A DNA stretch of 64,000 nt from Candidatus Bathyarchaeia archaeon. Lineage in GTDB: Archaea; Thermoproteota; Bathyarchaeia; Bathyarchaeales; DTEX01. This document shows, piece after piece, positions 1-64,000 of this stretch. The translations under genes were made by a program, and so were the position numbers. The stretch lies in contig JAWBXB010000003.1 in NCBI GenBank assembly GCA_038868075.1, forward strand, positions 47,156-111,155, read 5' to 3'. The notes beneath the pieces are model-generated. The model saw only the letters and a list, made by a program, of their open reading frames with translations, searched no databases and was not told the DNA's origin. Positions within the stretch are counted from its first letter, which is position 1, and each line of letters begins with the position of its first letter.

Positions 1-503
1 ACATCTATGCTTGAATTGATCAATCAACTCCCAAATATCAGGGAATTTAACCATAATTTATCCCTTCAAGATAAATCGACAAATTATCTATATAATTGAT
101 ATGCATTTTCTTTAAAAAATTGCTTAGATAAAAAATTAGATTTTTTTGTCGATAAAAATATATAAGAGCCTAATAAATTAAGAAAACAAAAAATAAAGTA
201 AAGTTTTTAAGCCAAAAATACGAATATTAAAATGCCTAATATTGAATTATTCCCAATCTGTGTAGAGGGGGGTTGAATATGCCAAAGAAGAAGAAGGCTG
301 AGGAAAAGAAGAAGTAGGGCATTTCAGCCTCCCTCCAGAAAAATAACTGAATTTTTTCCTATTTCTTTTTTACAGATAGAGGAAACATACCTTAAAGGTT
401 GAATTCTTTCTGATAACTTTAAAGTTATGCCTACACTGAATATTGTAGGCAAGTTTATTACCCACCTAATCCCAAAATATCTCTTTAAAGGAGGATAGGT
501 TGT

Positions 504-46416: not shown

Positions 46417-46701
46417 TTATCCTCCACCAATAACGGTCATGAGGGCTAAGGTATCACCGTCCTTAAGTTTAATATTATTCCCAGATGCTAAGTTTACTGC
46501 CAATCCATTTAGGGTCACTATTAATGTTGGATCAATAGGGCTCTCACCGAGACTGCTAACCATATCTTTAAGCGCACCATGCTCTCCAATAATTTTGAGG
46601 ATGAGGTCTCTAAGGAAAGCATTATCCTCTAGTTCAAACTCTTCCTCACTTCGTCCAACTTTATGTCTTACAACACCTAAATAAATGACCTTAACTCTCA
46701 T
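46417..46701 (-). CDS. MoaD/ThiS-family ubiquitin-like beta-grasp protein ending in Gly-Gly (SAMP-like)
   Basis: 94 aa. The C-terminus ...KDGDTLALMTVIGGG-stop is typical of MoaD/ThiS/SAMP. Confidence 0.65.
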   Translation of the reverse strand: MRVKVIYLGVVRHKVGRSEEEFELEDNAFLRDLILKIIGEHGALKDMVSSLGESPIDPTLIVTLNGLAVNLASGNNIKLKDGDTLALMTVIGGG

Positions 46702-47009
46702 GAAACCTCAAAAAGACTTAACTGAAAAATTGATTTAAACTTTACTTATCTTTTCTTTTTTAAATTATTAGTTGCAGCTGATGAAACTATACAGGATATC
46801 TGGTAAATCGCAATATTTACTCATATTTAACCCTAAAAGGTTCTTGGGAATTTTCATTTTAAGTGGAAACCAATATTCCTACATATGTTATTTTAAATTT
46901 TTCTATCAGAAAATATCTTTACTCCCGATGAAAAATCAAGAAAAATGTATATCACCTTTTTATACCCCGCATATAATATTTTGTCTTAGACAGTTAAGAG
47001 GTTCGGGTA

Positions 47010-47561
47010 TTGTCTCAGGAGAATAATATTTCATCAAATATTGAGTATTCAGATTTCATGTTTGAGAATAGTTTTGTTACAGTTATTGCCACAAAGAGTT
47101 CGCCTAAAATTGATCTGGCCGGTTTTTCAATAGGTCCTTTTGAGGAGGGACATGAGTATGAGGTTAGATTCTGGGTTGCCCGTGAACTTGAAAAGGATGG
47201 AATAGTTAAGATTAAGGAGGGTGCTTTAGATGCTGCTAAACTTTATAAGATCCAATGGACCGAACGCATACAAGCCGTTGGGCAGCTATCTTCTTTACCA
47301 GAAGACTTTTATCCTAGACTTAGACGCTTAATTAATGAATTAAAGGCGGTTTCTAGAGTAAGTCCTGAAAAGATGAGAGAATACGAGTATGTCCAAAACC
47401 TCGCGCAAGATATAGTCAACTGTAGACTTAGGAAAATAATAACGTTGGCTTCACTTTCAGCTCCAGAAAGCCATATTTTAAAGAGTCTCACACCCGAGGA
47501 GCGTGATTTATACGAGCGGATACGTCAAATCATAATAGAGTGGAGGGCTAAGATAGTTTAG
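47010..47561 (+). CDS. GINS complex subunit (Gins23-like domain order)
   Basis: N-terminal beta-rich domain (GPFEEGHEYEVRFWVARELEKDGIVKI), then a helical domain. Immediately upstream of mcm. Confidence 0.7.
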   Translation: MSQENNISSNIEYSDFMFENSFVTVIATKSSPKIDLAGFSIGPFEEGHEYEVRFWVARELEKDGIVKIKEGALDAAKLYKIQWTERIQAVGQLSSLPEDFYPRLRRLINELKAVSRVSPEKMREYEYVQNLAQDIVNCRLRKIITLASLSAPESHILKSLTPEERDLYERIRQIIIEWRAKIV

Positions 47562-47567
47562 CCATTA

Positions 47568-49625
47568 TTGGAGGTGCCTGTTACGACAGAACTTATCGTT
47601 GAAAGACCCCTAGAAAAATTTAGTTCAATATTTAAGTCTCCTAAGTATCGTCAGAGAATAGCCCAAATGGTTTTAAACTCATTAACATCTTTAATACTCG
47701 ATTTTGAGGATCTTCTCATTGTTGATCCACGTTTAGCTGATGAATTACTTGAGAAGCCAAGCGAGTACTTATCCTACGCTAACAGCGCAGCCCTTGAACA
47801 ATTGCAGATAGAGGACCCTGAATATGCTGAGAAGATTAAGGAGATAGGTGTAACAGTTAGGGTACGTGGCATACCAAGAGTTACACCACTACGTAAGCTT
47901 GGCTCAGAGCATATTGGTAAACTTGTTATGGTTGAGGGCATAATAATGCGTGCAACAACTGTTAGACCAATAGTTACTGTTGCAGCGTTTAAGTGTAAAA
48001 GGTGTGATGCTAAAATGGAGGTTCCACAGAGCGGTGCATTCTTAACTCTCCCATTTAAATGCGCAAATCCACGTTGTAGCAAGAGTGGACCTTTCGAGTT
48101 TATTCAAGAAGAGTCTAAATTTATTGATTATCAGGAGCTCAGGATTCAGGAGTATCCCGAAGATATTCCGCCAGGTCAAACCCCACGCTCGCTTGACATT
48201 AGATTGTTTGGAAAGGATATTGTTGATACCGCTAGGCCTGGTGATAGGGTTTATGTTGTCGGCATAGTTGGCGCTGAGGCAACATCGTATCCTAGAACTG
48301 GCAAGACTAGGGCTTTCACACTTTATATAGATGCAAACTTTATTGATGCCGCTGGAAAGGAGTCTGAGTCTCTGCTTATAACGCCTGAAGAGGAGGAGCA
48401 GATTCTCCGATTAGCCAAAGACCCCTTCATACACCAGAAGATTATTCAGTCTATTGCTCCATCAATCTATGGTTATGAGCATATTAAGGAGGCAATAATG
48501 TATCTCCTATTTGGCGGCGTTCAGAAGAACCTACCAGACATAAATATTAGGGGTGAGATAAATATACTCCTCGTTGGAGACCCTGGAACCGCTAAATCCC
48601 AGATTCTACGCTACGTTCAGAGGATAGCGCCCAGAGGCTTATATACAAGCGGCAGGGGCACAACCGCGGCTGGCTTAACTGCCGCTGTTCTACCATCGCC
48701 AACTGGCGGAATGACTCTTGAGGCCGGAGCGCTTGTCTTGGCGGATAAAGGTATAGCATGCATAGATGAGATTGATAAGATGAGACCTGAAGACAGGGTT
48801 GCAATACATGAGGCTATGGAGCAACATACGATATCTGTTGCTAAGGGCGGAATCGTTGCCACATTAAATGCTAGAACAGCTATTTTAGCAGCCGCCAACC
48901 CGGCTCTTGGCAGATACGACCCGTATAGAACTGTTGCTGAGAACATTTCATTACCTGTAACGATATTATCCAGATTCGATTTAATCTTCGTCTTAAGAGA
49001 TGTTCCGGAAAAGGATTCTGATTCAAGGATGAGTGAACACCTGCTTAAACTACATATGAAGGAGGTTCCTCCAGTTGAGCCTCCGATCCCGCCAGATCTA
49101 CTCAGAAAGTATATTGCCTATGCCAGAAATAATGTTAAACCTGTTCTAACACAAGAAGCTATGGATCGCCTGAAAGAGTTCTATTTGACTATGCGCTCAG
49201 CCAGTGAGGGGGAGGGCTCACCTATAGCCATAACAGCCCGTCAACTTGAGGCTTTAGTTAGGCTTGCTGAAGCCAGAGCTCGTGCAGCGCTTAGAAACGT
49301 TGTCCTACCTGAGGATGCTGAGGCAGCTATAGCCATAATGAGGAGGTCCCTTGAGGAGGTTGGCATAGATGTATCTTCAAAGAAGTTTGATATCGACATT
49401 ATCATGGTCGGTAAGCCCAGAAGTGTACAGGATAAGTTACGCGTCATATTAAACACTATAGTTGAGATGGAAAAGGAGAGCGGTATGGTTAGTAGGGCTG
49501 ATTTACTCGAGAAGCTTAGTAGCGAATATGATATACCTAGAACTGAGGCTGAGAAGTTAATAGCCCAAATGATACGCGAAGGCACATTATATGAGCCTAG
49601 AAATGGATATTTAAAGAAGACTTAA
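47568..49625 (+). CDS. mcm: MCM replicative helicase
   Basis: Zn motif CKRCDAKM..CANPRC, Walker A GDPGTAKSQ, Walker B CIDEIDKM, arginine finger SRFDL. No intein. Confidence 0.93.
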   Translation: MEVPVTTELIVERPLEKFSSIFKSPKYRQRIAQMVLNSLTSLILDFEDLLIVDPRLADELLEKPSEYLSYANSAALEQLQIEDPEYAEKIKEIGVTVRVRGIPRVTPLRKLGSEHIGKLVMVEGIIMRATTVRPIVTVAAFKCKRCDAKMEVPQSGAFLTLPFKCANPRCSKSGPFEFIQEESKFIDYQELRIQEYPEDIPPGQTPRSLDIRLFGKDIVDTARPGDRVYVVGIVGAEATSYPRTGKTRAFTLYIDANFIDAAGKESESLLITPEEEEQILRLAKDPFIHQKIIQSIAPSIYGYEHIKEAIMYLLFGGVQKNLPDINIRGEINILLVGDPGTAKSQILRYVQRIAPRGLYTSGRGTTAAGLTAAVLPSPTGGMTLEAGALVLADKGIACIDEIDKMRPEDRVAIHEAMEQHTISVAKGGIVATLNARTAILAAANPALGRYDPYRTVAENISLPVTILSRFDLIFVLRDVPEKDSDSRMSEHLLKLHMKEVPPVEPPIPPDLLRKYIAYARNNVKPVLTQEAMDRLKEFYLTMRSASEGEGSPIAITARQLEALVRLAEARARAALRNVVLPEDAEAAIAIMRRSLEEVGIDVSSKKFDIDIIMVGKPRSVQDKLRVILNTIVEMEKESGMVSRADLLEKLSSEYDIPRTEAEKLIAQMIREGTLYEPRNGYLKKT

Positions 49626-49643
49626 TGGTGTAGGGTTCAGGTC

Positions 49644-51887
49644 TTGCTCATCGAAGAACTCAACATAAATCCGGAAGTAAAGAAGATTTTAATTGAAGAA
49701 GGTGTAAGGGCTTTATTCCCGCCACAAGCGGAGGCCATAAAATTTGGGGCACTTGAGGGACAAAATCTACTATTAGCTAGTCCAACGGCTTCTGGCAAGA
49801 CTTTAGTTGCAGAATTATGTGCTCTGAAACACATTCTTGAAAATGATGGTAAAGTTCTTTATTTAACTCCTCTGAAGGCTTTAGCCAATGAGAAGTATGA
49901 GGAGTTCAAGAAGTACACTGTTATACGTAAACCTAATGGTAGACCAATTAGCGTGGGTATAAGTACTGGTGATTATGATAGTAGTGATACTTGGCTTGGA
50001 AAATTCGATATTATAGTGACAACTAATGAGAAGTGCGATTCACTTCTAAGACATAGGGCACCATGGATAAATGAGATATCACTAGTGGTTGCAGATGAGG
50101 TTCATTTATTGAACGATATTGAGAGAGGACCAACTTTAGAGGTTGTTTTAGCGCGGCTCATGCAAATAAACCCGAAAATTCAGATACTGGCTCTGAGCGC
50201 AACAGTTAGAAATTCTGATGAGATTGCCGAGTGGCTCAATGCCTCAGCCATAACGACCGAGTGGAGACCAGTTAAGCTCAAAGAGGGAATACTGTTAAAC
50301 GATGAAATCCAATTTAAGGATGGAGACTCGGCCAAAATAAATAGGATTGTTAAAGACCCTGCAATAAACTTAGCATTGCACAGCGTTAAACAGGGTGGGC
50401 AAGCACTTATATTCGCGTCTTCAAGAAAGAACGCTGTTAGCCTGGCTAAGAAGGCAGCTCCTGAGATAAGTGAGCTATTATCTAAATCCCTTAAGCGCTC
50501 CCTCGAGAACCTAGCCGATGAAATCCAAGCATCGGGTGAGAGAACTAGGTTAAGTGATCTGTTAGCCGAGCTGGTTAAGTGTGGTGTTGCATTCCACCAT
50601 GCAGGGTTATCGGGCACTCATAGGAAGATTATCGAGGATTCATTTAGAAATGGCAAGATTAAGGTTTTAACAGCCACACCAACATTAGCTTTCGGAGTTA
50701 ATCTTCCAGCCAGAATGGTTATTATAAGCGATTATAGGCGATACGAACCGGGCTACGGCTATTATCCAATAACGGTTTTAGAGTATAAGCAGATGGTTGG
50801 AAGAGCTGGCCGCCCAAAATATGATGATGTTGGCGAATCCATTTTAATCGCTAGAACTGATGAAGAGCGTAACTATCTTATAACAAATTTTGTTCTGGCT
50901 AAGCCTGAGCGCATATGGTCTAAGCTCGGTGTTGAACGCGTCTTAAGAAGCCATGTTCTGGCAACTATAGCCTCAGAATTCGCCTATTCGGAGCAGGGTG
51001 TATATGATTTCTTCGCTAAAACACTATATGCCTATCAATATGATATCGGGGCGATTAAAGGAACAATAGCAAGAATACTAAAGTTCCTTTATGATGAGGG
51101 AATGATAAAATATGAGGGTAATTTCATTAGGGCTACAGAGTTCGGTGCAAGAGTATCTCAGCTATATATTGACCCAGTCTCAGCCATAATGATTCGTGAT
51201 GCATTCAAAAGAAGGGCTCCAAGAATAACAAACATTAGTTTTCTCCATATGATAGCGCGCACCCCAGATATGGCGCCTAAGGTTAGACCCACGTCAAGCG
51301 AGATTGACGGAATAACGCTTTTTGTTGACGAGCATAGGGATGAATTCCTATTTGATGTCCCAGACGAGTGGACTGATAGAATAGATTTTGAAGAGTTTCT
51401 AAGCGAGGTTAAAACAGCCTTAGTCCTAAACGCTTGGATAGAAGAATTTTCTGAGGATGATATAATCGAGCATTTTGGGGTTGAACCTGGAGATCTATAT
51501 CATTTAACTGAGACAGCTAGGTGGCTTATATATTCATCATACGAGTTGGCGAAACTCCTTGGGCATAAAGATTTACTTGCAAAATTATTTGAGCTAATGG
51601 AGAGAGTTGAGAAGGGAGTTAAAGCCGAGCTAATACCATTGGCTAGGCTTGAGGGAATAGGACGAGTAAGAGCGCGCATACTGTATAATGCCGGATTAAG
51701 AACTCTAGAAGACTTAAGAAGGGTTCTAGTGGACAAACTCATGGAGCTGCCATTAATAGGTCCAAAGATAGCGAAAAGGATAAAGGAACAGGTTGGGGGA
51801 ACTCTCAGCCAAGAAGAATGGAAGAAACTGACTGAGGCAACAGGGGAGCAGGAGCAACAACCATTAACAGAATATTATAAATCGTAA
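49644..51887 (+). CDS. hel308: Hel308/Hjm Ski2-like DNA helicase
   Basis: PTASGKT, DEVH, SAT and the HHAGL...VNLPA motifs, with a C-terminal HhH domain. Confidence 0.9.
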   Translation: MLIEELNINPEVKKILIEEGVRALFPPQAEAIKFGALEGQNLLLASPTASGKTLVAELCALKHILENDGKVLYLTPLKALANEKYEEFKKYTVIRKPNGRPISVGISTGDYDSSDTWLGKFDIIVTTNEKCDSLLRHRAPWINEISLVVADEVHLLNDIERGPTLEVVLARLMQINPKIQILALSATVRNSDEIAEWLNASAITTEWRPVKLKEGILLNDEIQFKDGDSAKINRIVKDPAINLALHSVKQGGQALIFASSRKNAVSLAKKAAPEISELLSKSLKRSLENLADEIQASGERTRLSDLLAELVKCGVAFHHAGLSGTHRKIIEDSFRNGKIKVLTATPTLAFGVNLPARMVIISDYRRYEPGYGYYPITVLEYKQMVGRAGRPKYDDVGESILIARTDEERNYLITNFVLAKPERIWSKLGVERVLRSHVLATIASEFAYSEQGVYDFFAKTLYAYQYDIGAIKGTIARILKFLYDEGMIKYEGNFIRATEFGARVSQLYIDPVSAIMIRDAFKRRAPRITNISFLHMIARTPDMAPKVRPTSSEIDGITLFVDEHRDEFLFDVPDEWTDRIDFEEFLSEVKTALVLNAWIEEFSEDDIIEHFGVEPGDLYHLTETARWLIYSSYELAKLLGHKDLLAKLFELMERVEKGVKAELIPLARLEGIGRVRARILYNAGLRTLEDLRRVLVDKLMELPLIGPKIAKRIKEQVGGTLSQEEWKKLTEATGEQEQQPLTEYYKS

Positions 51888-52004
51888 TGATGCTGAAAAG
51901 CATAATTGGGATCACTATAAAAATTTACCTTTTTCCCCTAAAAGTTATCTTTCTAGGTAATGTACTTTTTTAATTTAGTGAAGATTTGGGTGAAGTGATG
52001 TGTT

Positions 52005-53001
52005 TTGGAGACTCTTCTTTTAAGCGATGACGAAATTAAAGAACTTATTTCAATTAGCAATATCAGGGACGTTGTTGAATTAGCTTTCAGGGAGAAGGGT
52101 CTTGGTAGAGTTCAGATGCCACCTAAAAATTACCTATTTCTTTAGCAAGTATAATGGTGATTTAAGGGCAATGCCCTCTTATCTCGAGGAGATGGATGTA
52201 GCAGCAGTTAAGGTTGTAAACGTTCACCCGGATAATAAAGAGAAATATGGTCTACCAACAGTTATGGCCGTGATAATTCTCTAGACCCCAAAAGCGGCTT
52301 TCCAATAGCAATTATGAGTGGGACAACAATAACTAACATGCGTACTGGCGCAGCTGGCGGCATAGCTGCAAAGTACCTCGCGAGAAAGAACTCAAGAGTT
52401 GTTGGGTTAGTTGGCGCCGGGGCTCAGGCAAGAACTCAATTAATGGCGCTTCTAGAAGTATTTGGTTCTTTCGAAGATGTTAGGGTTTGGAGTAGAAGTG
52501 AGAAAACAAGAATAGAATTTAGGGGATGAGATTATGGCGAAATATAGGCATTTATGCAAGATAACACTTGTTGAGAGAATTGATGATGCTGTGAGGGGAG
52601 CTGACATAGTTGTAACCACAACGCCATCTAAGGTTCCACTTGTCATGGATGAGTGGATTCAGCCCGGAACACACATCAATTGTATAGGTGCTGATGCTCC
52701 TGGAAAGGAGGAGCTTGATCCCATGATACTTAAGAGGGCTAAGATTGTTGCTGATGATTGGGAGCAGGCATCACATGGTGGGGAAATAAACGTGCCCTTG
52801 AGCAAATGGATAATTTCCAAGGATAATATTTGGGCTGAGATGGGCGAAATAGTTGCTGGAATAAAGCCTGGAAGAATTAGCAGTGATGAAATAACAGTTT
52901 TTGTTTCAACGGGGCTGGCAATACAGGATGCTGTCACAGCTAACCTGGCATATCGAATGGCTTTAGAGAGAGGAGTTGGCAAAAGAATTAGAATAGTGTA
53001 A
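52005..53001 (+). pseudogene. ornithine cyclodeaminase/mu-crystallin-family (archaeal alanine dehydrogenase-like) gene with three frameshifts
   Basis: Four collinear pieces in different frames: ETLLLSDDEIKELIS...[10 protein letters not shown], then [32 protein letters not shown], then [44 protein letters not shown], then AKY...VVTTTPS..INCIGADAPGKEELD... Confidence 0.8.
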
Positions 53002-53213
53002 AATGAAGGAAACACTTTTAAGGACATGAGGAGATTCGGCAATTTAGATCTAAATAACTTCGAAAGATTATTTTAGACTATTCCGAAAGACTTTCAGAAT
53101 CTTTTAAGTTAAAAGCTCTTCCATTTATTTGCTGGAAAAAATTAAAGGATAAATATCTGTTTTTGGATCTTTAATAATTCTGAACTTACAAAGCATAGGC
53201 GGAGGGTTAATGT

Positions 53214-53486
53214 GTGTCCTTCGATCTTAAAGGTGTCATAGTCAATTATAGACTAGGACCTAGAACACAAAAATCTAAAGAGTGCCTAATACAGTTTCCG
53301 AATGTGAAGTCTAGGAGCGAGGCGGGGCAGCTTATTGGGCGTAAGGTTGCATGGTCTGATGGAAAAAATAATACAATAGTTGGGGTTATAATTGCGCCTC
53401 ATGGAAAGAAGGGTGTAGTTAGGGCAAGATTTAGGAGAGGGTTACCTGGGCAGGCTTTGGGAACAGAAGTGAGAATTATTGGCTAA
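53214..53486 (+). CDS. rpl35ae: 50S ribosomal protein L35Ae (eL33)
   Basis: GVIVNYRLGPRTQKSKECLIQF...GKKGVVRARFRRGLPGQALG. Confidence 0.9.
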   Translation: MSFDLKGVIVNYRLGPRTQKSKECLIQFPNVKSRSEAGQLIGRKVAWSDGKNNTIVGVIIAPHGKKGVVRARFRRGLPGQALGTEVRIIG

Positions 53487-53521
53487 ATATGCTAAAATTT
53501 TCAGCCATGAGTAATTTTGAT

Positions 53522-54130
53522 CTAGGTTAAGTTGGTGCAGAGTGTTCTTATTATTCCTCTCGCCAATAATCTCGCTATTCTGAGCGGTTCAGGCACTGCG
53601 CCATGTAATGTGAATTTATTGAGTATCCCCTTCGCTTCCTCTAGGCTCATACCGTAAAATCTAATGTATACTTTATGCCCTGTATGAAGATTCACAGTAG
53701 TTCTCGGACCATTTTTATGATAGATTTCTATGCGCTTTTCACAATCCTCTGGAAATAATTCTAGGAAATATTTATCTAAACCCTCAGATTCCTCGTATGT
53801 CACGCATATAAGCGGCAGATTTGTCTCCTCATACACTCTCTGGAGGTCAACTACATTATACCAGCTTATAACGCAGCCATTAAGCATTAAAACATTTATA
53901 TCGTCTCTCTTTAGGTCTTTGTACATATCTATAATTTTCTCGGTTGCATCCATACCGCCAACGGATACTCTGGAAAATATGAAGCCATCTAGTATGCCGT
54001 CGCTCCTTAAGACCACACCGGCTAAAACTGATTTTCCACTTAAACCCTTAATGAAACTCTCAGATATCCCTAATGCTCGGAAAGCCTTTTTGTGAACATG
54101 CAGACGCAAATCATGCACCCATACTAGCAA
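53522..54130 (-). CDS. DUF99/UPF0215 family protein (endonuclease V-like fold)
   Basis: RALGISESF...LAGVVLRSDGILDGF...VGGMDATEKI, typical of archaeal DUF99. Exact start uncertain (TTG 54130, GTG 54118 or TTG 54109). Confidence 0.6.
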   Translation of the reverse strand: MLVWVHDLRLHVHKKAFRALGISESFIKGLSGKSVLAGVVLRSDGILDGFIFSRVSVGGMDATEKIIDMYKDLKRDDINVLMLNGCVISWYNVVDLQRVYEETNLPLICVTYEESEGLDKYFLELFPEDCEKRIEIYHKNGPRTTVNLHTGHKVYIRFYGMSLEEAKGILNKFTLHGAVPEPLRIARLLARGIIRTLCTNLT

Positions 54131-54146
54131 GTTTATCTAGTCCGGG

Positions 54147-54863
54147 TTATTCAAGCGTAAAGTAAACGCGCTTATTTAATTTACCTTTACTCTCAAGCTT
54201 CAGCAACCTTATTTGACCAACCTCTCTAAGGTTTCTGACATGTGTTCCACCATCAGCCTGCTTATCAACGCCAACAATTTCAACAATGCGCAGTGATGGG
54301 ATATTTGGTGGAAAAGCCTCAGCCATCTTAACTATGCCCGGAATCTTTAAGGCTTCTTCCCTTGGAAGCTCATACCATATTACAGGAATATCCTTCTTGA
54401 AGAGCTCATTGGCTTTCTCCACATACTTCATTATTAAATCCCTATCTAGACGTTCCAGGCTAAAGTCAAATCGAATTTTATCCTCTTCAATCTGATTTCC
54501 AGTCACAAGGGCTCCGGTTTCGCTGCATATTAATGATGCGAATACATGTGCCGCTGTATGACTACGCATAAATTTATAGCGCCTTTCCCAGTCAATGATA
54601 CAATGAACTCTATCGCCAACCTTCAAACCTTCCCTATCAACTTCATGTGATATATCTTCACCGAACTTACCGACATAAATAACGTTAAAGACTTCGTCTC
54701 CACGTATTATCTTTCCAGTATCCCAGGGTTGCCCTCCACTTTTAGGGTAGAAAACTGTTTGATCCAAGACTACATATCTGCCATCAGTAACTTTAATAAC
54801 GGTCGCATCACACTCCCTAAGATAACTATCCTCCAGATATAGAGCTCTCGTCAAAACCGCCAC
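54147..54863 (-). CDS. alaX: alanyl-tRNA editing protein AlaX
   Basis: HTAAHVFAS (HxxxH) and the DGGTHV zinc/editing motifs, 238 aa. Confidence 0.85.
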   Translation of the reverse strand: MAVLTRALYLEDSYLRECDATVIKVTDGRYVVLDQTVFYPKSGGQPWDTGKIIRGDEVFNVIYVGKFGEDISHEVDREGLKVGDRVHCIIDWERRYKFMRSHTAAHVFASLICSETGALVTGNQIEEDKIRFDFSLERLDRDLIMKYVEKANELFKKDIPVIWYELPREEALKIPGIVKMAEAFPPNIPSLRIVEIVGVDKQADGGTHVRNLREVGQIRLLKLESKGKLNKRVYFTLE

Positions 54864-55058
54864 CCCGAAAAAATATGATCTTTAAACATGGATTTATGCC
54901 TTTTTAATCAATAATCTAGTATCCTAATCTTATAGCAATGTATTATATTTAAGAGGGAAGATTATAGAAGCACGGTTTTAGCGTAAATAGGCCGAAAATT
55001 TTATAGTATCTAAGCTCCAACTATTTTATAGTTTTATAGTTTGTTGGGGTGAGATTCT

Positions 55059-58000
55059 GTGAAATTTAGGCTAAAAAATGTCAAGCGTCCATTTATCTCC
55101 TTTTTAATGCTTTTAATAATTTTTCCTCTTACGCAAAATGCTCCTCTTCCAACCATAAGTGAGACTACGAGTTTAATTGAGAACACCCCCCACTCCTCAG
55201 GTGCTTTATGTGGGAACTAGCAATCCAGCCACGGTATATAAATATACACGTGAAACAGGATGGGAGGCTATGATTCCAGCAATAAGATCAGGAAATATAA
55301 GTCTTGAGAGCCCGCATCCGTATCCAAATAATTATGATAATATATGGGAAATATATTACCCAAATGCGGCCATGATACGAGTACACTTCGCATATATTCG
55401 CACAGAGAGCTCATATGATTACGTTTATGTGAGAAGTAGTGATGGAACCATTGTTAATATATACTCCGGGCAGTATGAAAATGTTTGGAGTAATTGGATA
55501 TCGGGAAACATCATTTTCATACAATTAATATCAGATTATAGCATAACCTACGAGGGATTTTCAATAGATAAGCTAGAATGGACTTCTTCAAGTTTAAGTA
55601 TTACACAAGAGTTTGCCGTTCTCTCTTTAGTCGAGTACAATGGCCACCTATATGCAGGCACCATGTCAAGCTCTAACCCCGGAGAGGGAAAAGGGCGCGT
55701 ATATAGATATGATGGTGTTAACGTCAAGGGCGAACATGTGTGGACTATAGTTGGCGACAACATGGATAACCAAGTTTCTTCGCTGGTAGTGTTTAAGGGC
55801 AAACTGTACGCTGGAACAGCATGGGGTTCGGGAAAACTCTATCGATATGATGGAGAAAATAATTGGACGGTTGTAATCGATTATCCCGATTGGGATGGCA
55901 TAAGAAGCGCGTATATGTGGAATGATTTTCTATATCTTGGGGATATCGCCTACGATAAAATCGGCCGTTATGACGGAATAACATTTGAACCTCTCGTCCA
56001 TTTAGGAGGAAGCTGCATTTATGACTTTGAGATCTATAGGGATAACTTATATGCCGCAGCTTATAGGGGTAGACTTTATAGGTCAGCAGATGGAAACTTG
56101 TGGAGTCTAGTAGTCGGTCCTCAAGACTTCCATATGTGGGAGATTGAGACTTTTCAGGGTTACTTATATATGGGTATGGATTCAGGGCAGATTCAGAGAT
56201 TTAACGGGGATGTAAATGAGGTTATTTGGACGGCGCCAGATAGTGTCATATCAATGGTTGTTTATGAAAATCTGTTATATTTTGGAACCGGGGGGAAGCT
56301 GGCTACCTTGGAAGAACAACTGGTGAGGGGAGGGTTTATCAGTATGATGGAACCTATGTTCAAGCAATTTCTGATATTTTAGGCCAAGGAATTCAAGTTT
56401 TATATGTACCTAGAACATACACTCTTCATGTTCAAAGTTACCCCGTTACTGGAATTGGGATCTCTTATTCTGGAGACTATTCTGGATCTGAAAACACAAA
56501 CTTTGATATTGCAAAAGATTCTCCCTTCACAATAACGCTGACGGCTCCATTAACCTACCAAGACTATATATTTGACCACTGGGAACTCGACGGCACCCCA
56601 GTCGATGGTGACAATTCATTATTTGTTGAGGTTAGCCCTAATAAGCAGAATAGAGTTGCAATTGCATTTTATGTGAGAGGTTCATCAAATATAAATGTTT
56701 ATTCGGAATATTCTGGCTATTTCTTTACTGGCTTTAGCGTTAATAACACTTTCTACGTTGACACCTTTTACGAGGATTCTATTCCCATAAGCGTTACTGG
56801 AACATTAGCTGGTGAGACGCTAGTTTTCAATTATAATAATACAGTTGGAATGTGGACGGCATCTTACGATATGGGCCAATTAAAATCTGGCAAAAATATT
56901 TTAATGGTTACAACCCTTTACCAAAATGGAGAGATCTTCGCTAAAAGCTACAGTATAAATGTTCTTCAAGCACCTAAGATTTTATTAGAAATTATTCGTT
57001 CAGGGGGTATTAATGTTGATGTATCTCTTGGCTCAGCCAGCGTCTTAATAACATTTATTGCAGAAAGAACTGGATATTGGAATAATAGCTATCTACTAAT
57101 AATAGATTTAGATGTATCAATAAATTTGGTTCGTGCACAAGTAGATGTACCCTATATTAAAGGAGAGTACGCATCGCCTCCCTTAGAGTTTAACCTTGAA
57201 TTTACTTTATCATCTTCAGGCAAGTTTTCTGTTAGTGGAGAATTAAGTGTGGAGAAGGAGGCTACGTTAGTCTCCGTGCCCATTTTTATCCAAATGTCAG
57301 CTAATGCTCAAGGAACATTTAACGTTGATTTTTATGAGTATACCATTGAACTTGAAAATATAGCGGTCTCTATATCTCTTTCAGCTACCGGATCATATAC
57401 TTTACCAACTCCTTTAGGAATATCCATTCAGATCGGACCTTACAATATAAACATAGGCGTCACCGTGGAGTTTGTAGCATCAGTAAGTGGTAAAGTGAAC
57501 ATCGTTTTTGTATCTACAGATGATAGGTCAAAATACTTCCTTAGAGTGTTACCAGTAGCTCCCGAGGAATTAGAAGGTTTTGTTGGATTGCCATTTATTC
57601 TAACCGGGCAGATTGGTGGGGGTGCTCAGCATGGTGGACGTGTGGGTGTCTGGGGATGGTTACAAGGAGCATGTGGTTTCGGCACCTTCCTACAGTTAAG
57701 TTCCCATCCCTTAAAGGGATACGCGTTAGCTGGAGCAGTAAGGGCAGGCATAACAGTAAACCTTGTCGCTAAGAGGTGGAGCAGTGTTATAAATCTATGG
57801 AGTGGAAGTCATATTAATGGCGACGTATCAGGCGAAGACCTTGAAAACTTAAAAGGCAGTATAAACGATGTCGCTACACTCTACGATTATCCACCGCTCG
57901 GTTTCGATTGGATTAATGATTCATGGACTGGCATAGTTGGTGAGAATTTACCTAACGGATATAGTTATACGTCCATAGAGTATGAAAACAAAACATACAT

Positions 58001-59288
58001 TTATTACACTTATGAGCGGCTAGATGGATCGGCATGGATAGACGGTCTCATCTTTAGCAAGTTAAATGCGTCTCCAGCACCGCTTCCAAAATTTAGTGGA
58101 GCAGGGGTTGCTTCACCATTTTTGTTTAAACTGACAAATGGGACACCAATAATGTTTTGGGCAACAGCCCCTACCCTAGGAGATCTAAGCAACTTAACAA
58201 TTATACTTCAGTCGTCACAAATGCAAAATGGTGTTTGGACCAATCCAGTTAATGTGACAAATGAGGGAATAGTATGGGCATATACTAGTGACGGAAAACA
58301 CATATATGTTATCTGGTCTCCCAATCTTGCCAGCAATCTATATAGTAACACGATTTTAAAAGTTTTTGGAATAAACGGAAGTCTTCTGTGGGAAAAAGCG
58401 CTGCCTAATGCTACAGCGCTTAAAGGTGCTGTAAATGGCAAGGTTATTGTTGGCTTCCTCAATGGTACATACTCTATAGTAAGTGCAGAGGAAGCAATAA
58501 ATATAGGACCAGTTACTGAAGCAGGAATAATCCCGGAAACAGACCTGATGTATATTTACGCTGAGGGAATCCTCAGAATTTTCAATCAGACAAAAAGTAT
58601 CGAGATAAAACTTGATAAAACATATGCGTGGCCTATAGTTGCCTACAAAAAGGTTGCCATAGTTACTTATACCCCGGAAAAATTAGAATTATATATTTGG
58701 AACGATTCAACCAGTATTAAATTAAGGGAGTATAGAATATCCAATGTAACTGCTATTAGCGCATCCTCTGCAAAGGGAGTCCTATATTTATACCCATATT
58801 CATTCAAAGATGAGAGTATGGGAACAATGTGGTGTTTGATAGTCCCACTCGTTGCGCCGAAGCCCCTAGTGTATATTGACGTCCATGAAGATAAGGCGAC
58901 AATAAGATGGGAGATTAGAGATCCAGAGCAATATAATATCACTAGTATCGAGCTCGCAGTCTACCATGATATTGACTTAATATCAACGAAGGAAGTTGGC
59001 TCCATGGGTACAGAAGTAATAAATCTGAACCAAACAGGAACATACACCTTCAAGGTTAGAGTTAAAACCTTACTAGGCGAAGAGATAGTGCAGAAAACAA
59101 TTGAAATAAGCCAAAATTGGCTAATGCTTCATTTACTAATCATTTGCATCGTCATATCTATAGTAACAGTATTAGCAATAATTTTTTATCAAAAACATAA
59201 GGTACCAAAGCTTCCATCTCTACCCCCACCTCCACCCCCTCAGCTCATAATTACATACATACTCTCTTCGTCGCATCTCTACACTTAG
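55059..59288 (+). CDS. giant (~1400 aa) C-terminally anchored surface protein: signal peptide, CUB-like domain, 6-bladed propeller-like repeats, Ig-like region, TM anchor; read through two homopolymer frameshifts
   Basis: GTG 55059 encodes VKFRLKNVKRPFISFLMLLIIFPL (frame 0) up to the C6 run 55186-55191. Frame 1 carries ESPHPYPNNYDNIWEI... (CUB-like) and repeats LYAGT..G(K/R)(V/L)YRYDG. At the G6 run 56290-56295 the reading returns to frame 0 (GEGRVYQYDGTYV..., open from 56244 through the track ORF 56673..59288). The C-terminus has WLMLHLLIICIVISIVTVLAIIF plus a poly-Pro tail. Confidence 0.65.
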
Positions 59289-59407
59289 TGTAGAGAAAGA
59301 GTACGTTAGATGTTAGATTCCGTCTCTTCCAATTGTTTTTCACGAGAAATATGTAGTCTTGGCGAAAGTTAATATTGCCCAAGGGTTAAACGTGGATTTA
59401 TGTTTTA

Positions 59408-61158
59408 TTAATCAATAAATAAGCTTACAACCTCTAGTTTCTCAGCATCAATAAGCCCGAAATCAGTAATTTTAAGTTTTGGAATAACTGGAAGCGAAAG
59501 GAATGAAAGTACAATAAATGGATTTTTAATCCCGCAGCCAAGCTGCGCAGCTGCAGTCTCAAAAGAATTAGTTTTCTCAGATATTTCGTCAGCCTCTAAA
59601 GCCGCCATTAGCCCAGCGATTGGTAAAGGAAGCTCTTCAATAATTTTTCCGCCATTAACTATCACAAAGCCTCCATTAATCTCTCTAAGTCTTAATATTG
59701 CCCTGTAGATATCATGATCATTTACACCTACAGCAATAATATTATGTGAGTCGTGGGCAACTGTTGAGGCTATCGCGCCACTCTTGAAGCCGAAACCCTT
59801 CACGAAACCCTTTCCAATCCTACCCGACGCTTTATGTCTCTCAATAACGCATATCTTAAGTATGTCCCTATCTGGATCGGGATTAACTTCACCATTAATA
59901 ACATTCATTTCGCATCGAATCTCTTCAGTAATTATTTGACCCCTAATTAAGCCAATGACTCTAACAGTAACCTTACCATCACTTATGCTTGGATGTTTTA
60001 TACGTAGATCCTTGAGACATAATGGTCCAAAATTAACTGATCCAAGAGCTGTTTTCATGAAATTGCCAGCGTCTGCACCCAGATATTTGCCATCCTTAGC
60101 TACAATCTTACCATCTATTAAGACAACCCTGGCCCTAAAACTTCTTAAATCATCTACAATAACCATATCCGCTGATTTCCCGGGCGATAAGCCCCCTAAA
60201 TTTGGGAGTCTAAAGTATTCCGCAGGCTTAATCGTAACCATTTTGATAGCGTCTATTGGATCTAAGCCCCCTCAACAGCCCTCCTCAAGCAGTAGTCTAT
60301 ATGTCCCTCACTTATAATATCACCAGCATGTCTATCATCAGTCACTAGCATAACTCTTTCAGGACAACCTTTAGAAACAATTTTTATGAGGGATGAGATC
60401 GCTTTAGTCGTTGACCCCTCACGTATCATAATCCACATTCCAAAGGTTATCTTCTCCTTAGCTTCCTCTAGACTTATTGTCTCATGGTCTGAGTTTATCC
60501 CAGCTAAAATGTATGCGCATAGATCATCGCCTCTTAAGCCAGGGGCATGCCCATCAATAATCATTCCCGTGCAAGCCCTTATCTTATCTAAAACTAACTT
60601 ATCCTTGTTTATCACACCCTTATAGTTCATGACTTCGCCTAGACCAAGAATATTTTTGAAGCCCTTAAGCATCTCTATCTCTCTTAAGCCTATCTCAGCT
60701 CCAGAGGTCTCAAGATTTGTTGATGGGACACATGAGGGAATCATGAAGTAAAACTTCAGCGGGGTTCTCTCAGCATCTTCAATCATAAATTTTATTCCAT
60801 TTAAGCCTAAAACATTTGCAATCTCATGTGGATCAGCTATAACACAGCATGTTCCATGCGGAATAACAGCTTTAGCAAAGAAGCTTGGCGTCATCAGTGA
60901 GCTCTCGATATGAATATGTCCATCAATATACGCTGGCAAAACATATCTGGAGGATGAATCTAAAAATTTCCTAGATACTTTAGGCTTAACGCCGACATAT
61001 GTTATTAAACCGTCTTTAACGCCTACATAACCATCAAAAATACTGCCACTATAAACATCAACTATCTTACCTGAAATCAGTAACTCTAGAGGCGTTAAAC
61101 CCAAGCATGAATCTATAAGAGACTCCATCCTAACACCAAAACTAAATTCTGAAAACAT
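59408..61158 (-). CDS. ade: adenine deaminase, split by a 1-nt frameshift at a C5/G5 run
   Basis: N-terminal part (60262..61158) has PAYIDGHIHIESS...ADPHEIANV...DGHAP..SDHE..TDDRH. The C-terminal part continues in another frame as GLDPIDAIKMVTIKPAEYF... Reading RRAVEGG-LDPIDAIKM requires one extra G at 60267-60271. Confidence 0.75.
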
Positions 61159-61205
61159 TCAATTAAAATGTAATTCCAAGTCTAGACTAATAGGATTTTG
61201 CATTA

Positions 61206-61251
61206 TTTCACATTTATGGTGTATAAAATTTCACATTTATGGTGTATAAAA
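61206..61251. repeat. perfect 23-bp direct tandem duplication (tttcacatttatggtgtataaaa x2)
   Basis: Copy 1 at 61206-61228 and copy 2 at 61229-61251 are identical. They lie in the intergenic region upstream of ade. The minus-strand reading contains TTTTATAC TATA-like boxes. Confidence 0.9.
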
Positions 61252-61358
61252 ACATTAGTATAAGATCAAGTTCTATAACAAAAATCCAATAGAGCTAAGC
61301 ATATAACCAAAAAGCACGAACGCTTTAGCTTATCTAATTGTTTACTCATCTCACCCTA

Positions 61359-61595
61359 TTAAGAAGATTTAGATTTAGTAAGAAACTTTTGTTTCTGGTG
61401 TTCAAATTTGAACTCCCTTTCAATTTCACGTAAGATATCATCTAATGTCGGTGGAACGTGTAGTCCAGGAGATATTTCCAATCTATCCTCACTAAGCATT
61501 TTTATGAGAGCCTTCTTTTCATCTAATCCAGACTGCATATATCTTTCTAAGTGGTCATTAATAGATGTAATGTAGTCTGGGTTAATGCGTGCCAA
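61359..61595 (-). CDS. hypothetical small acidic/helical protein
   Basis: 78-aa ORF with a TTG start and no recognisable family. It may instead be the tail of the decayed gene upstream. Confidence 0.3.
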   Translation of the reverse strand: MARINPDYITSINDHLERYMQSGLDEKKALIKMLSEDRLEISPGLHVPPTLDDILREIEREFKFEHQKQKFLTKSKSS

Positions 61596-61596
61596 A

Positions 61597-62201
61597 CTAC
61601 ACTTCAGAAGCTTCCGGTAGATTTCGTCGGCTGTTAATGTCTTTCAAACTCTCTATTTTATTATTTAATTTTAGACTTACCTCCCTAAACTTGCGGAGAG
61701 AGGGAGCCATCTTATACCTTTCATCAATAGACTTGCCTATCCAATGTGCTAGAGCGATGAATAGTAGCAAAAGAGCCGGTATTATGTCGAGAAGTCATCT
61801 GCCATATTGCCAAGAGAGAGCGTACAGAATTATGGATGAAAATATGAAAAGCCAAATAGTGCTAATTATAAGCGCACCTTTCTCCCCCATCCTTGGTTCC
61901 ATCCCTACATTTAGCGCAAAGGAAAATTCTATCAATTATCACAGTTTTCCCCTCCATCCTTATACTCATTACTAGGAACAAACAGTCACCACAGAAGCTT
62001 CCATAACATTTGCTACAGAGCCCTATGGTCAGCGATTCCGGGTGGTTCAGGCATCGTTGGATTGGTCCCCAAATTTTGGCGGAACCAAGATTGTTGATCC
62101 ACAATAGTGGCATTTAACTTGAACTGCTCCAGGCGGAATAAACTCTCTATATAGGGTGCGCTGCAGAATGGGCAGAGAAGATGCTCAGAGCTTTCTAACA
62201 T
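61597..62201 (-). pseudogene. decayed gene for a zinc-ribbon plus B-box-like Cys-rich membrane protein (3 frameshifts and an in-frame TGA)
   Basis: MLESSEHLLCPFCSAPY (frame X), IPPGAVQVKCHYCGSTILVPPKFG (frame Y), PIQRCLNHPESLTIGLCSKCYGSFCGDC...CAKC (frame A), EKGALIISTIWLFIFSSIILYAL..GR-TGA-LLDIIPALLLLFIALAHW... (frame C). The zinc-ribbon halves are split across frames. Confidence 0.55.
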
Positions 62202-62283
62202 GGAAGTCTCTCCTATTGATATAATAAAATTTAGACTTAATATTTTCATTCTCTTAGCGATTTGCCTAGAGACAATTTTTCTT

Positions 62284-63159
62284 CTAATATTGTCCCAATG
62301 AACCGTCTCTTCTAGCGGCATCGTAACCAATCTTAAATATGTAGAGGGCTATTGGTGTTGCAATAATTATGAAAATTATTAGGCTTATAATGTTAGAGAT
62401 TATTGCTGGATGTGTTAAATCCTTACCTGACTGAAGGCATAGTCTTATGCCGTCCAGAGAGTATGTTAATGGAAAAGCTCTTCCAACCCACTCAAGATAC
62501 CACGGTAGCAATTTAAGTGGATAAAAAACTCCTGAAACAAGTTGGCTAAGCCATGAAAATGCCCACGTTACTGGACTACCCTGCTTAACCTTCATTATTA
62601 CACCAGCGCTTAATATACCAATATCCATGTGGCTTGCAATTAGAAGAATGGTCAATATTATAGCTGTGAGAATTGATGAGGGTGTCGTATAGAATTCTGC
62701 GCCTAAAGCTATCCCTACAAGCAGCGACATTAGGAGCAGGGCTGATGAGACAATAAATGAGAAGCAGACTTCGCCTAAAAGAAATATTTTAAAATCTGTT
62801 GCTGTTGAAAGAATGGTTTCCATAGTTCCATTCCACTGTTCCTCACGTATACTCTCATTTATGCTTTGGACAGCGAAGTGGATGTATTGCTGGAATGCTA
62901 TGCCTATCAAAGCAAATGTGAAGTAACCGCCAACCATATAACCAGCTTCCTGAATTTGCTGAGATGTCGTGATTAATGAGAAAAGATAATATGTTATAAC
63001 AAATAGTATTATTCCGGAAATATCTAGCATGAGCCAAAATTTATATGTCCACCAAATCTTAAAGTCCCTAATAACGAATGACAGAACAATTTGATAGATG
63101 GGTGTTTTCCTACGCGGCACATCCTCAGACATTATTCTAGTAATATTCTCAACATCCAT
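62284..63159 (-). CDS. ABC-2 type transporter permease
   Basis: 291 aa with ~6 TM helices and an ABC-2 membrane-domain pattern. Confidence 0.7.
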   Translation of the reverse strand: MDVENITRIMSEDVPRRKTPIYQIVLSFVIRDFKIWWTYKFWLMLDISGIILFVITYYLFSLITTSQQIQEAGYMVGGYFTFALIGIAFQQYIHFAVQSINESIREEQWNGTMETILSTATDFKIFLLGEVCFSFIVSSALLLMSLLVGIALGAEFYTTPSSILTAIILTILLIASHMDIGILSAGVIMKVKQGSPVTWAFSWLSQLVSGVFYPLKLLPWYLEWVGRAFPLTYSLDGIRLCLQSGKDLTHPAIISNIISLIIFIIIATPIALYIFKIGYDAARRDGSLGQY

Positions 63160-63177
63160 GTAAAACCCGTCCCATCT

Positions 63178-64000
63178 CTAATATGTTGCAACAGTTCCCT
63201 CATATCTTATGCGGTTGATACCCCACCTAAAAACCCTTAATCCTATGGGTATAAAAATTACCGTGTAAGCGATTAACACAGCAACATCCATCAGAACTAA
63301 TGGTGAGAGTATCGTTGCGCCATTAAGTAGGATTCTGCGCGCAGCATCTAAAGCATACGTGTATGGCATGAACCAAGCAAGAAAATATAATGCTGGAAAA
63401 CTCTCAAGATATTTTAGTGGAAAAAGAACTCCCCCCAGAAATTCTGTTACACTAGCGAATAGAAAAGTAAGCGGATCACCCTTTTTATATACGAGGATTA
63501 GTCCAGCAGCCATTATGCCTATTCCAGCATAGCTTAAAACCATCAGCAGTACCACTATTATAAACGATAGGGTTGTCTCTAGGTTAATTATTAGCGGGAC
63601 CTTCAAAACCCAAACTCCTACAAGAAGCACACCTAACATAAAGTAGCCGCTGACGAGAAAACCTCTAATCGATTGTCCAATAATATATGACCTCATGTTT
63701 ACTGGTGATGTGATTATTGGCTCCAAAGTTCCTTCACGAATCTCATGCTGTAAGGAATGACTTAATCTGCTGATGCACATCCAGAGATAATTTGCTGTGG
63801 CAACTCCAACTAGGGCGAATGATAACCAGTCAACTTCACCGTAACCAGCCAAAGCGACTCTTCTCGCATCAACCTGCAAACCCATAAATGAGTACATGGC
63901 AACCGAGGCAATTGTGCTTATAGTCTCCATTATAACCCAAGTCCTATAAGACAGGAATATCTTGAAGTTAGCCCAGAAAATGGCCCAAACATGTTTTATC
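63178..64000 (-). CDS. ABC-2 type transporter permease (5' end beyond the window)
   Basis: The frame stays open upstream of the track's ATG 63930 to the window edge (..KHVWAIFWANFKIFLSYRTWVIMET..). Polytopic and paralogous to 62284..63159. Confidence 0.65.
   Translation of the reverse strand, partial: IKHVWAIFWANFKIFLSYRTWVIMETISTIASVAMYSFMGLQVDARRVALAGYGEVDWLSFALVGVATANYLWMCISRLSHSLQHEIREGTLEPIITSPVNMRSYIIGQSIRGFLVSGYFMLGVLLVGVWVLKVPLIINLETTLSFIIVVLLMVLSYAGIGIMAAGLILVYKKGDPLTFLFASVTEFLGGVLFPLKYLESFPALYFLAWFMPYTYALDAARRILLNGATILSPLVLMDVAVLIAYTVIFIPIGLRVFRWGINRIRYEGTVATY

Follow-up and report, generated by a model that had tools for sequence, protein, structure and literature searches.

Bacterial poly-G/C contingency loci carry a G/C run within a surface-protein open reading frame (ORF) at the exact position of the frame change (PMC3711429, PMC2831843). 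Frameshift pseudogenes or "interrupted genes" are described in archaeal genomes such as that of Saccharolobus solfataricus, according to van Passel 2007 and Cobucci-Ponzano 2010 as cited in PMC8211752. Furthermore, archaeal −1 frameshifting is known for fucA1 of S. solfataricus, which is split over two frames and yields a full-length conserved protein when these are joined (PMC1616953, PMC8211752). The locus compared here with these systems is the gene of a large surface protein at positions 55059-59288 (forward strand) of a 64,000-nucleotide (nt) window, that is, the whole stretch of DNA analyzed, from contig JAWBXB010000003.1 (positions 47,156 to 111,155) of the NCBI GenBank assembly GCA_038868075.1 of a Candidatus Bathyarchaeia archaeon. 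The gene is broken by two single-base shifts of opposite sign at a C6 and a G6 tract, which are probably real ±1 mutations fixed in a near-clonal population, so that the gene would be a pseudogene with two hits, alongside other accessory genes that are dead as well. Like the bacterial contingency loci, it has G/C runs at the exact frame changes of a surface-protein gene; in contrast to them, the runs are 6 nt long, show no length polymorphism, are not conserved in the ortholog and are both out of frame, and the organism is an uncultured archaeon. It also resembles fucA1 in that a joined reading gives a full-length conserved protein, whereas fucA1 possesses an A-AAA-AAT heptamer with rare codons at its flanks and a putative stem-loop; the present gene has no heptamer at either site and no structure downstream, and it would need two shifts that differ in sign. 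With the archaeal interrupted genes it shares a conserved ORF split by ±1 insertions or deletions (indels), the separate annotation of the pieces, and the occurrence of several such genes in one genome; it differs from them in that this gene has two hits and a neighbor three, and in that the broken state recurs across numerous metagenome assemblies from a single clonal population.

The G+C content of the 64 kb window is 40.9%, and that of the surface-protein gene, 39.4%, is like that of the flanking DNA. Three forward-strand ORFs, 55059-55220, 55177-56382 and 56673-59288, are parts of this single gene. The first of them (MKFRLKNVKRPFISFLMLLIIFPLTQNA...) starts in frame 0 at GTG 55059, 6 nt downstream of a Shine-Dalgarno-like GGTGA (55048-55052, forward strand) that may act in translation initiation, and no motif comparable to GGTGA precedes TTG 55177 or GTG 55210. 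This frame-0 segment (55059-55185) encodes a Sec-type signal peptide (residues 1-28) and a linker to the C tract, and unless the first shift is corrected it is terminated after 53 codons by the TAG at 55218-55220. Frame 1 is open across 55174-56382 and frame 0 is open once more across 56263-59288; the C6 tract (55186-55191) and the G6 tract (56290-56295) each lie within a window of frame overlap (44 nt and 117 nt, respectively). The initial annotation had pointed to the rarity of G/C homopolymers in this sequence, and indeed only five G/C runs of at least 6 nt were found in the whole 64 kb. Because there are just five, the position of two of them in the frame-overlap windows, where ~0.013 would be expected, is not a coincidence. 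Removal of one C from C6 and addition of one G to G6 produce an ORF of 1,409 amino acids (aa), with IENTPTPQVLYVGTSNPATVYK and DSVISMVVYENLLYFGTGGEAGYLGR as the sequences that span the junctions. The first shift is thus a +1 event at C6, where one base is extra relative to the ortholog frame, and the second is a −1 event at G6, where one base is short according to the codons of homologs. Between the tracts, the frame-1 segment (55192-56289) encodes the first propeller strands (55204-55269), a CUB domain (55300-55566), five more blades and the start of a sixth, as assigned by Pfam, AlphaFold2, Foldseek and ~69 homologs, and it would be closed by the TAG at 56380-56382 without correction of the second shift. 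The last segment, again in frame 0 (56296-59288), comprises the end of the last propeller blades (to 56408), an immunoglobulin (Ig)-like domain, a long-stranded beta region, a second beta-propeller, another Ig-like domain, a transmembrane (TM) helix (59118-59189) and a 32-residue tail, on the basis of alignment to two homologs (P0001 and P0002), AlphaFold2, Foldseek and hydropathy.

The evidence that these pieces form one gene comes from intact relatives. A word-indexed search identified P0001, an uninterrupted protein of 1,392 aa that shows 69% identity over 96% of the joined sequence and is colinear with it across both junctions. Frame 0 of the window matches this ortholog through ...SE..L.ENT, and frame 1 takes over from P.VLY.GTSNPA. 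At the first junction, ...SETTSLIENT of the window is followed by PTPQVLYVGTSNPA, and SEAIGLAENT of P0001 by TRPVVLYAGTSNPA; at the second, LLYFGTGG is followed by EAGYLGRTTGEGRVYQYDG, and LLYIGTGG of P0001 by EAGYSERTTGDARVYQYDG. All five full-length members of the 90% cluster of the ortholog (5/5) remain in one frame through both sites. In addition, ~69 other proteins align over residues ~185-450 and therefore span the G junction at residue 411. The motif LY[FI]GTGGEAGYLGRT.G.G.VY.YDG is repeated among these propeller homologs, many of which contain GTGGEAGY. The ortholog DNA (L001) reads ACAACCCGTCCA, with the codons AAT ACA ACC CGT CCA, at the first site and has no C tract. At the second site, ACC GGG GGG AAG CTG GCT of the window corresponds to ACG GGG GGA GAG GCT in L001, where a G6 lies in frame, to ACT GGG GGT GAA GCT in L006 and to ACA GGC GGA GAG GCC in L008; GGT GGA GAA also occurs among homologs, and the G run is interrupted in L006, L008 and L010. 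Because homologs encode the same residues with varied codons, the G run is a by-product of the Gly-Gly-Glu codons. The base missing at G6 may have been a G, if the original run was G7, or else the A of GGA, whose loss could have created the G6 of the window. Searches of genome and metagenome contig collections with the joined protein returned either no match or one distant partial match (L005). The 390-aa ORF was considered as an independent protein and rejected, as it has neither a signal peptide nor the end of the propeller; the 871-aa ORF was likewise rejected, as its start falls within a domain and it lacks a signal peptide despite its TM anchor. The three frame pieces therefore form one gene with located shift sites and intact orthologs. 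This confirms what the initial annotation had read from the window: a signal-peptide-like N-terminus in frame 0 reaching C6, a CUB-like domain and five blades in frame 1, a return to frame 0 at G6 with a continuing blade motif, a C-terminal TM anchor ending at 59288, and hence one gene of ~1400 aa made of two listed ORFs and an unlisted N-terminus.

The state of both tracts was compared in seven independent loci (L019-L025) from the ENA assemblies ERZ27245617 and ERZ27245628, the NCBI assembly GCA_038864545.1, the Logan assemblies SRR5468568 and SRR21619492, and the JGI assemblies 3300022544 and 3300007999. These loci are 99.99-100% identical to the window over 4.7-17 kb with zero gaps and zero to one single-nucleotide polymorphism (SNP) each, and C6 and G6 are unchanged in all of them. 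Two assemblies bear one private SNP each, at 48149 (in the MCM gene) and at 61227, and because of these the assembly consensuses are independent rather than copies of one another. An exhaustive HMMER search also recovered an 871-aa protein that is 100% identical to the window ORF. Fragments of 871, 390, 277, 298 and 155 aa are deposited in four NCBI metagenome-assembled genomes (MAGs; e.g., MEM2341161.1 and MEM2341162.1) and occur in JGI, ENA and Logan assemblies; in the public annotation, the 390-aa piece is a "CUB domain-containing protein", the 871-aa piece is a "hypothetical protein" and the 53-aa ORF is uncalled. Some of the contigs have k141_ names, which are the default of the short-read assembler MEGAHIT. 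Since the same indels recur in separate assemblies, all six homology-confirmed frameshifts of the window, all of which fall in three genes between 52.0 and 60.3 kb, are present in the DNA of a near-clonal population. Over 46673-64000, the samples from at least four or five accessions are nearly identical with only the two private SNPs, which indicates a remarkably clonal population. We take IMG 3300007999 to be a hot-spring sample. The data owner of this IMG entry is given as B. Hedlund (PMC9599585).

Frame-breaking indels relative to intact orthologs, the mark of a pseudogene, are thus present in the DNA, and a probable course of events can be proposed for the loss of the surface protein. Single-base mutations, presumably of the slippage type, added a base to the C run just after the signal peptide and removed a base at the Gly-Gly-Glu codons of a late blade, and both changes have become fixed in a near-clonal lineage. 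Translation from the real start would end after 53 codons, and the gene would therefore be a two-hit pseudogene. The same process has probably killed at least three accessory genes in a 9-kb neighborhood, namely those of the surface protein (two ±1 indels), alanine dehydrogenase (three) and adenine deaminase (one). Slippage as the origin of the lesions, non-expression of the gene and a recent date of the loss are inferred, and the clean coding sequence is read as a sign of a recent loss rather than of function. The pattern fits selection, because the breaks are confined to three dispensable genes and random consensus errors would not spare essential ones. The spontaneous mutation spectrum of the thermophile Sulfolobus acidocaldarius is rich in indels (PMC4471258), and by analogy a similar spectrum may apply to Bathyarchaeia. 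The surface-protein gene would be a further example of the already-known frameshift pseudogenes, in a little-known family of modular surface proteins.

Several observations weigh against a dead gene. The propeller has one conservative change at 42 otherwise invariant columns, the corrected alanine dehydrogenase has no change at 70 invariant columns and one at 113 columns conserved to at least 97%, and no in-frame stop occurs in the ~2,300 codons of the three broken genes. Without substitutional decay, the lesions would be either very recent or tolerated. In addition, three hits in a 1-kb gene without other damage are unusual under a standard, indel-poor spectrum, and the expected-essential ABCE1 gene, which has no canonical in-frame start at 489-535, leaves slight room for unusual decoding in this organism. 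The tract comparison is one of assembly consensuses. The collections hold no relatives between 100% and ~80% nucleotide identity, the next being 93% identical in the AlaX protein and ~80% in nucleotides; the age of the lesions is not bracketed, because no such intermediates exist there. The clean columns themselves are as compatible with a functional gene as with a pseudogene of recent date, because the pooled ~0.9 indels per kb predict just one or two changes at conserved columns.

Three other explanations were weighed against the fixed-mutation pseudogene. A sequencing or assembly artefact, in which the true genome would have C5 and G7 and an intact gene, was at first favored, and was dropped once the identical 871-aa ORF and the seven gap-free assemblies had been found. 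It could account for six indels within 8.3 kb without substitution damage, some public assemblies may share overlapping read sets, and BLAST-validated singleton frameshifts are mostly errors (PMC3711429). However, MEGAHIT-style (k141_), Logan, JGI and NCBI assemblies, which stem from four or five sample accessions at the least, all carry the same indels and show private SNPs but no indel differences; short-read consensus is not known to give systematic indels at T3, CTC and G4 contexts; and errors would have struck essential genes as well. An artefact is therefore highly improbable, and the homopolymer miscalls that the initial annotation had named as the alternative to phase variation are contradicted by the C6 and G6 kept in all seven assemblies. 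Slipped-strand phase variation, the explanation preferred in that annotation, would make the C and G tracts switches and the sampled populations OFF/OFF. The product is indeed of a surface-exposed type (signal peptide, TM anchor, extracellular-type domains and excess sequons), both shifts lie at two of the only five G/C runs of at least 6 nt in 64 kb, and a stable majority state in near-clonal populations is compatible with low-rate switching. On the other hand, the tracts of 6 nt fall below the published criterion of repeats of at least 7 nt (PMC3711429), their lengths are identical in the consensus sequences of at least seven assemblies, and this comparison among MAGs and assemblies, being without variation, gives no support for switching. 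The predicted C5+G7, C5-only and G7-only products are absent from a collection of 15 billion proteins, whereas the OFF fragments occur on 8-12 contig records. A C tract is lacking in the ortholog, whose five copies all carry the G6 in frame and are ON. Because both tracts are out of frame, a single slip cannot restore expression: C5 alone would lead to the stop at 56382, G7 alone would leave the protein without a start and signal peptide, and two slips would be needed to turn the gene on. Moreover, neighboring genes that do not encode surface proteins bear similar lesions at short runs or at none. Phase variation is thus very unlikely here, and we know of no demonstration of slipped-strand phase variation in archaea.

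Recoding, by which real frameshifts would be corrected during expression and some full-length protein would be made, is unlikely as well. At the C site, tRNA-Pro could slip by +1 in the P site on CCC-C, and at the G site, tRNA-Gly could slip by −1 in the P site on G-GGG; RNA polymerase could instead slip on the runs. The coding sequences of the three broken genes are undamaged beyond the indels; in CCC-CAC, the P-site codon can re-pair and the next codon is the less frequent of the two for His (CAC 3.4 vs CAT 12.0 per 1,000); the two −1 sites, at 56290 and 60267, are in G runs that permit re-pairing of tRNA-Gly; and ABCE1, which has no canonical in-frame start, is readable as TTG-TAT followed by a +1 shift at TAG. 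In contrast, an X XXY YYZ heptamer is present at neither −1 site, and ACC GGG GGG AAG allows a P-site slip alone. No stable RNA structure relative to shuffled sequences was detected in the 90 nt 3' of each tract (z of +0.95 at the G site and −0.20 at the C site). The shifts are not conserved in the ortholog, the propeller homologs or the sister species, the alanine dehydrogenase sites have no common motif, and the yield would be negligible if each gene depended on two or three inefficient events in succession. Some shifts lie beside stop codons (CTT TAG C, CTC TAG A, GGA TGA G and GCT TAG A), and stop-linked shifting of the Euplotes or prfB kind was considered and rejected. In a simulation, the observed 4/6 shifts within two codons of a stop compared with an expectation of 0.25-0.32 per site (p ~0.06); given the abundance of stops in the other frames of this sequence, the proximity is not significant. 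For alanine dehydrogenase, a shift made at the stop would in addition turn an invariant Phe into Leu. That the frameshifts are maintained at all, either through ribosomal or transcriptional slippage at short G/C runs that would allow expression of the surface protein, alanine dehydrogenase, adenine deaminase and perhaps ABCE1, or as a two-lock C6/G6 switch, is doubtful. Either outcome, be it recoding or a contingency switch in an archaeon, would be notable if true, and a two-lock switch would be the first such contingency locus in an uncultured archaeon.

If the gene is a pseudogene formed by fixed ±1 mutations, as seems probable, three fragments, the uncalled 53-aa piece and the 390-aa and 871-aa pieces deposited as separate proteins in four NCBI MAGs, should be annotated as one dead surface-protein gene; two neighboring "proteins" are likewise the halves of an adenine deaminase. 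In the near-clonal hot-spring Bathyarchaeia, ±1 indels alone would then have abolished a large surface protein together with two nitrogen-related enzymes, and such losses fit the indel-rich spontaneous spectrum described for a thermophilic archaeon. With regard to method, a homopolymer frameshift in a surface gene mimics phase variation and a cluster of frameshifts mimics sequencing error, and the separation of the two came solely from the comparison of independent assemblies.

The protein that the corrected gene would encode is predicted to begin with a signal peptide and a beta-propeller that harbors a CUB domain after its first strands; an Ig-like domain then leads to a long-stranded beta region, which is followed by a second propeller, another Ig-like domain and the C-terminal membrane anchor. 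The CUB domain (PF00431) was matched at residues 81-169 with an E value of 1.2e-7 and 32.5 bits, above the gathering cut-off of 21.4. An AlphaFold2 model of residues 1-470 built from 18 sequences has a mean predicted local distance difference test (pLDDT) score of 85 and a predicted template-modeling (pTM) score of 0.78, with pLDDT of 88-97 over residues 50-410. It shows strands at residues 49-70, the CUB domain, and then four-strand runs at residues 186-449, and the high confidence is kept across residue 411, where the strands of the last blades flank the G junction on both sides. With this N-terminal half, Foldseek retrieved 7- and 8-bladed propellers (probability 1.0) and the Bacteroides BT4663 and BT4673 sensor propellers. 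The ring of the propeller is probably closed in the model by the N-terminal strands. The CUB domain is an insertion within the propeller, because a CUB-less homolog passes directly from the N-terminal LYAGGSN..VYKY strands into the propeller. As an observation on its relatives, the first propeller (55204-56408; GTGGEAGY...VY.YDG) has a weak, sub-threshold DUF6242 hit as its sole Pfam match, and its relatives (P0003-P0094) include ~70 multidomain extracellular proteins of 40-60% identity with dockerin, PKD, peptidase or caspase domains; the named sources are Promethearchaeota/Lokiarchaeota, WOR-3, Zixibacteria and Planctomycetes.

The AlphaFold2 model of the 871-aa C-terminal ORF has a pLDDT of 78; in it, an Ig-like domain is followed by very long beta strands, and a second propeller by a further Ig-like domain and a TM helix, which hydropathy and the model place at residues 1354-1377. 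Its Foldseek matches include 1l0q, a Methanosarcina surface-layer protein with a YVTN propeller and a PKD domain. 1l0q and BT4663/BT4673, which are among the best Foldseek matches for the two halves, share with the present protein an extracellular beta-propeller followed by an Ig-like domain, but the similarity is at the level of the fold alone (8-18% identity), and three features are additional in the present protein: the CUB domain inserted in its first propeller, the long-stranded beta region, for which Pfam gave no match, and the C-terminal TM anchor. The ~800-aa C-terminal module (56673-59288; P0341-P0386) had 47 matches among 1.84 billion cluster representatives and no match in Pfam. The N-terminal heads joined to it vary: a CUB domain and a propeller precede it in the present protein, P0341 has a NosD beta-helix and P0345 an NHL propeller. 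The domain make-up, the swapped heads and the TM helix identify the protein as a modular membrane-anchored surface protein. It contains 19 N-glycosylation sequons, where 12 ± 3 are expected. The cytoplasmic tail (59190-59288) has 32 residues and is proline-rich (QKHKVPKLPSLPPPPPPQLIITYILSSSHLYT), whereas orthologs stop after seven or eight basic residues (KRKKRP, KRKRRT); by comparison with these, the longer tail seems to have arisen by loss of a stop codon. The possibility that the tail holds a third frameshift was considered and rejected, as the alternative frames yield no ortholog-like ending.

The other broken genes flank the surface-protein gene. The gene for alanine dehydrogenase, of the OCD/mu-crystallin family, lies in four frame pieces at 52005-53001 (forward strand), with shifts near 52137-52143, 52281-52284 and 52522-52528; the respective contexts are CTATTTCTTTAG, CTCTAG and AGGGGATGA, without a long homopolymer at any of them. 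Three 1-nt fixes give a protein of 331 aa, the length of most of the Bathyarchaeia homologs listed, of which residues 1-329 align with PDB 1omo (E 2.7e-96), and the breaks are identical in L019-L025. Adenine deaminase (59408-61158, reverse strand) is split into ORFs of 298 and 277 aa by the loss of 1 nt at 60267-60271. The corrected protein aligns continuously with PDB 3nqb, the same split is present in L019-L025, and the halves are annotated as two proteins in the NCBI MAGs. In the sister species, the enzyme is intact (573 aa) and reads GAG GAG GGG ATA, where the window has GAG G-G GGC TTA; the lost base may be an A, whose loss would have made the G5 run. A coding-potential scan of all window ORFs, including those for CODH/ACS, ribosomal proteins, GINS, MCM and Hel308, revealed no further frame break and flagged only ABCE1 in addition.

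The surroundings of the gene are also rearranged. In the sister species (AlaX 92-93% identical in amino acids and ~80% in nucleotides), the genes for adenine deaminase, AlaX and Endo-dU are adjacent and co-oriented beside a ribosomal-protein cluster. Compared with that arrangement (L011-L018), the adenine deaminase-AlaX-Endo-dU block is inverted in the window and moved beyond L35Ae, across the genes for ribosomal proteins, GINS, MCM and Hel308. The 4.2-kb surface-protein gene is placed between adenine deaminase and AlaX, a pair separated by 48 nt in relatives. A comparison of gene order in L019 and L024 with that in L011 also showed ABC-2 transporter genes between HAD and adenine deaminase.

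ABCE1/Rli1 (489-2285, forward strand) aligns with PDB 3j15 from RIAVID at 507. In the window sequence, neither ATG nor GTG nor TTG occurs in frame from the upstream stop at 489-491 to position 1266, or ahead of RIAVIDLDKC. In its start region (498-515), an out-of-frame TTG lies 5 nt past GGAGG, and TTG-TAT with a +1 shift at TAG would give MYRIAVID; ATT or ATA may instead serve as the start codon. Upstream of ABCE1, at 267-317 (forward strand), a G6 run occurs in GAGGGGGG and is followed by a 12-codon lysine-rich ORF (MPKKKKAEEKKK, 279-317).

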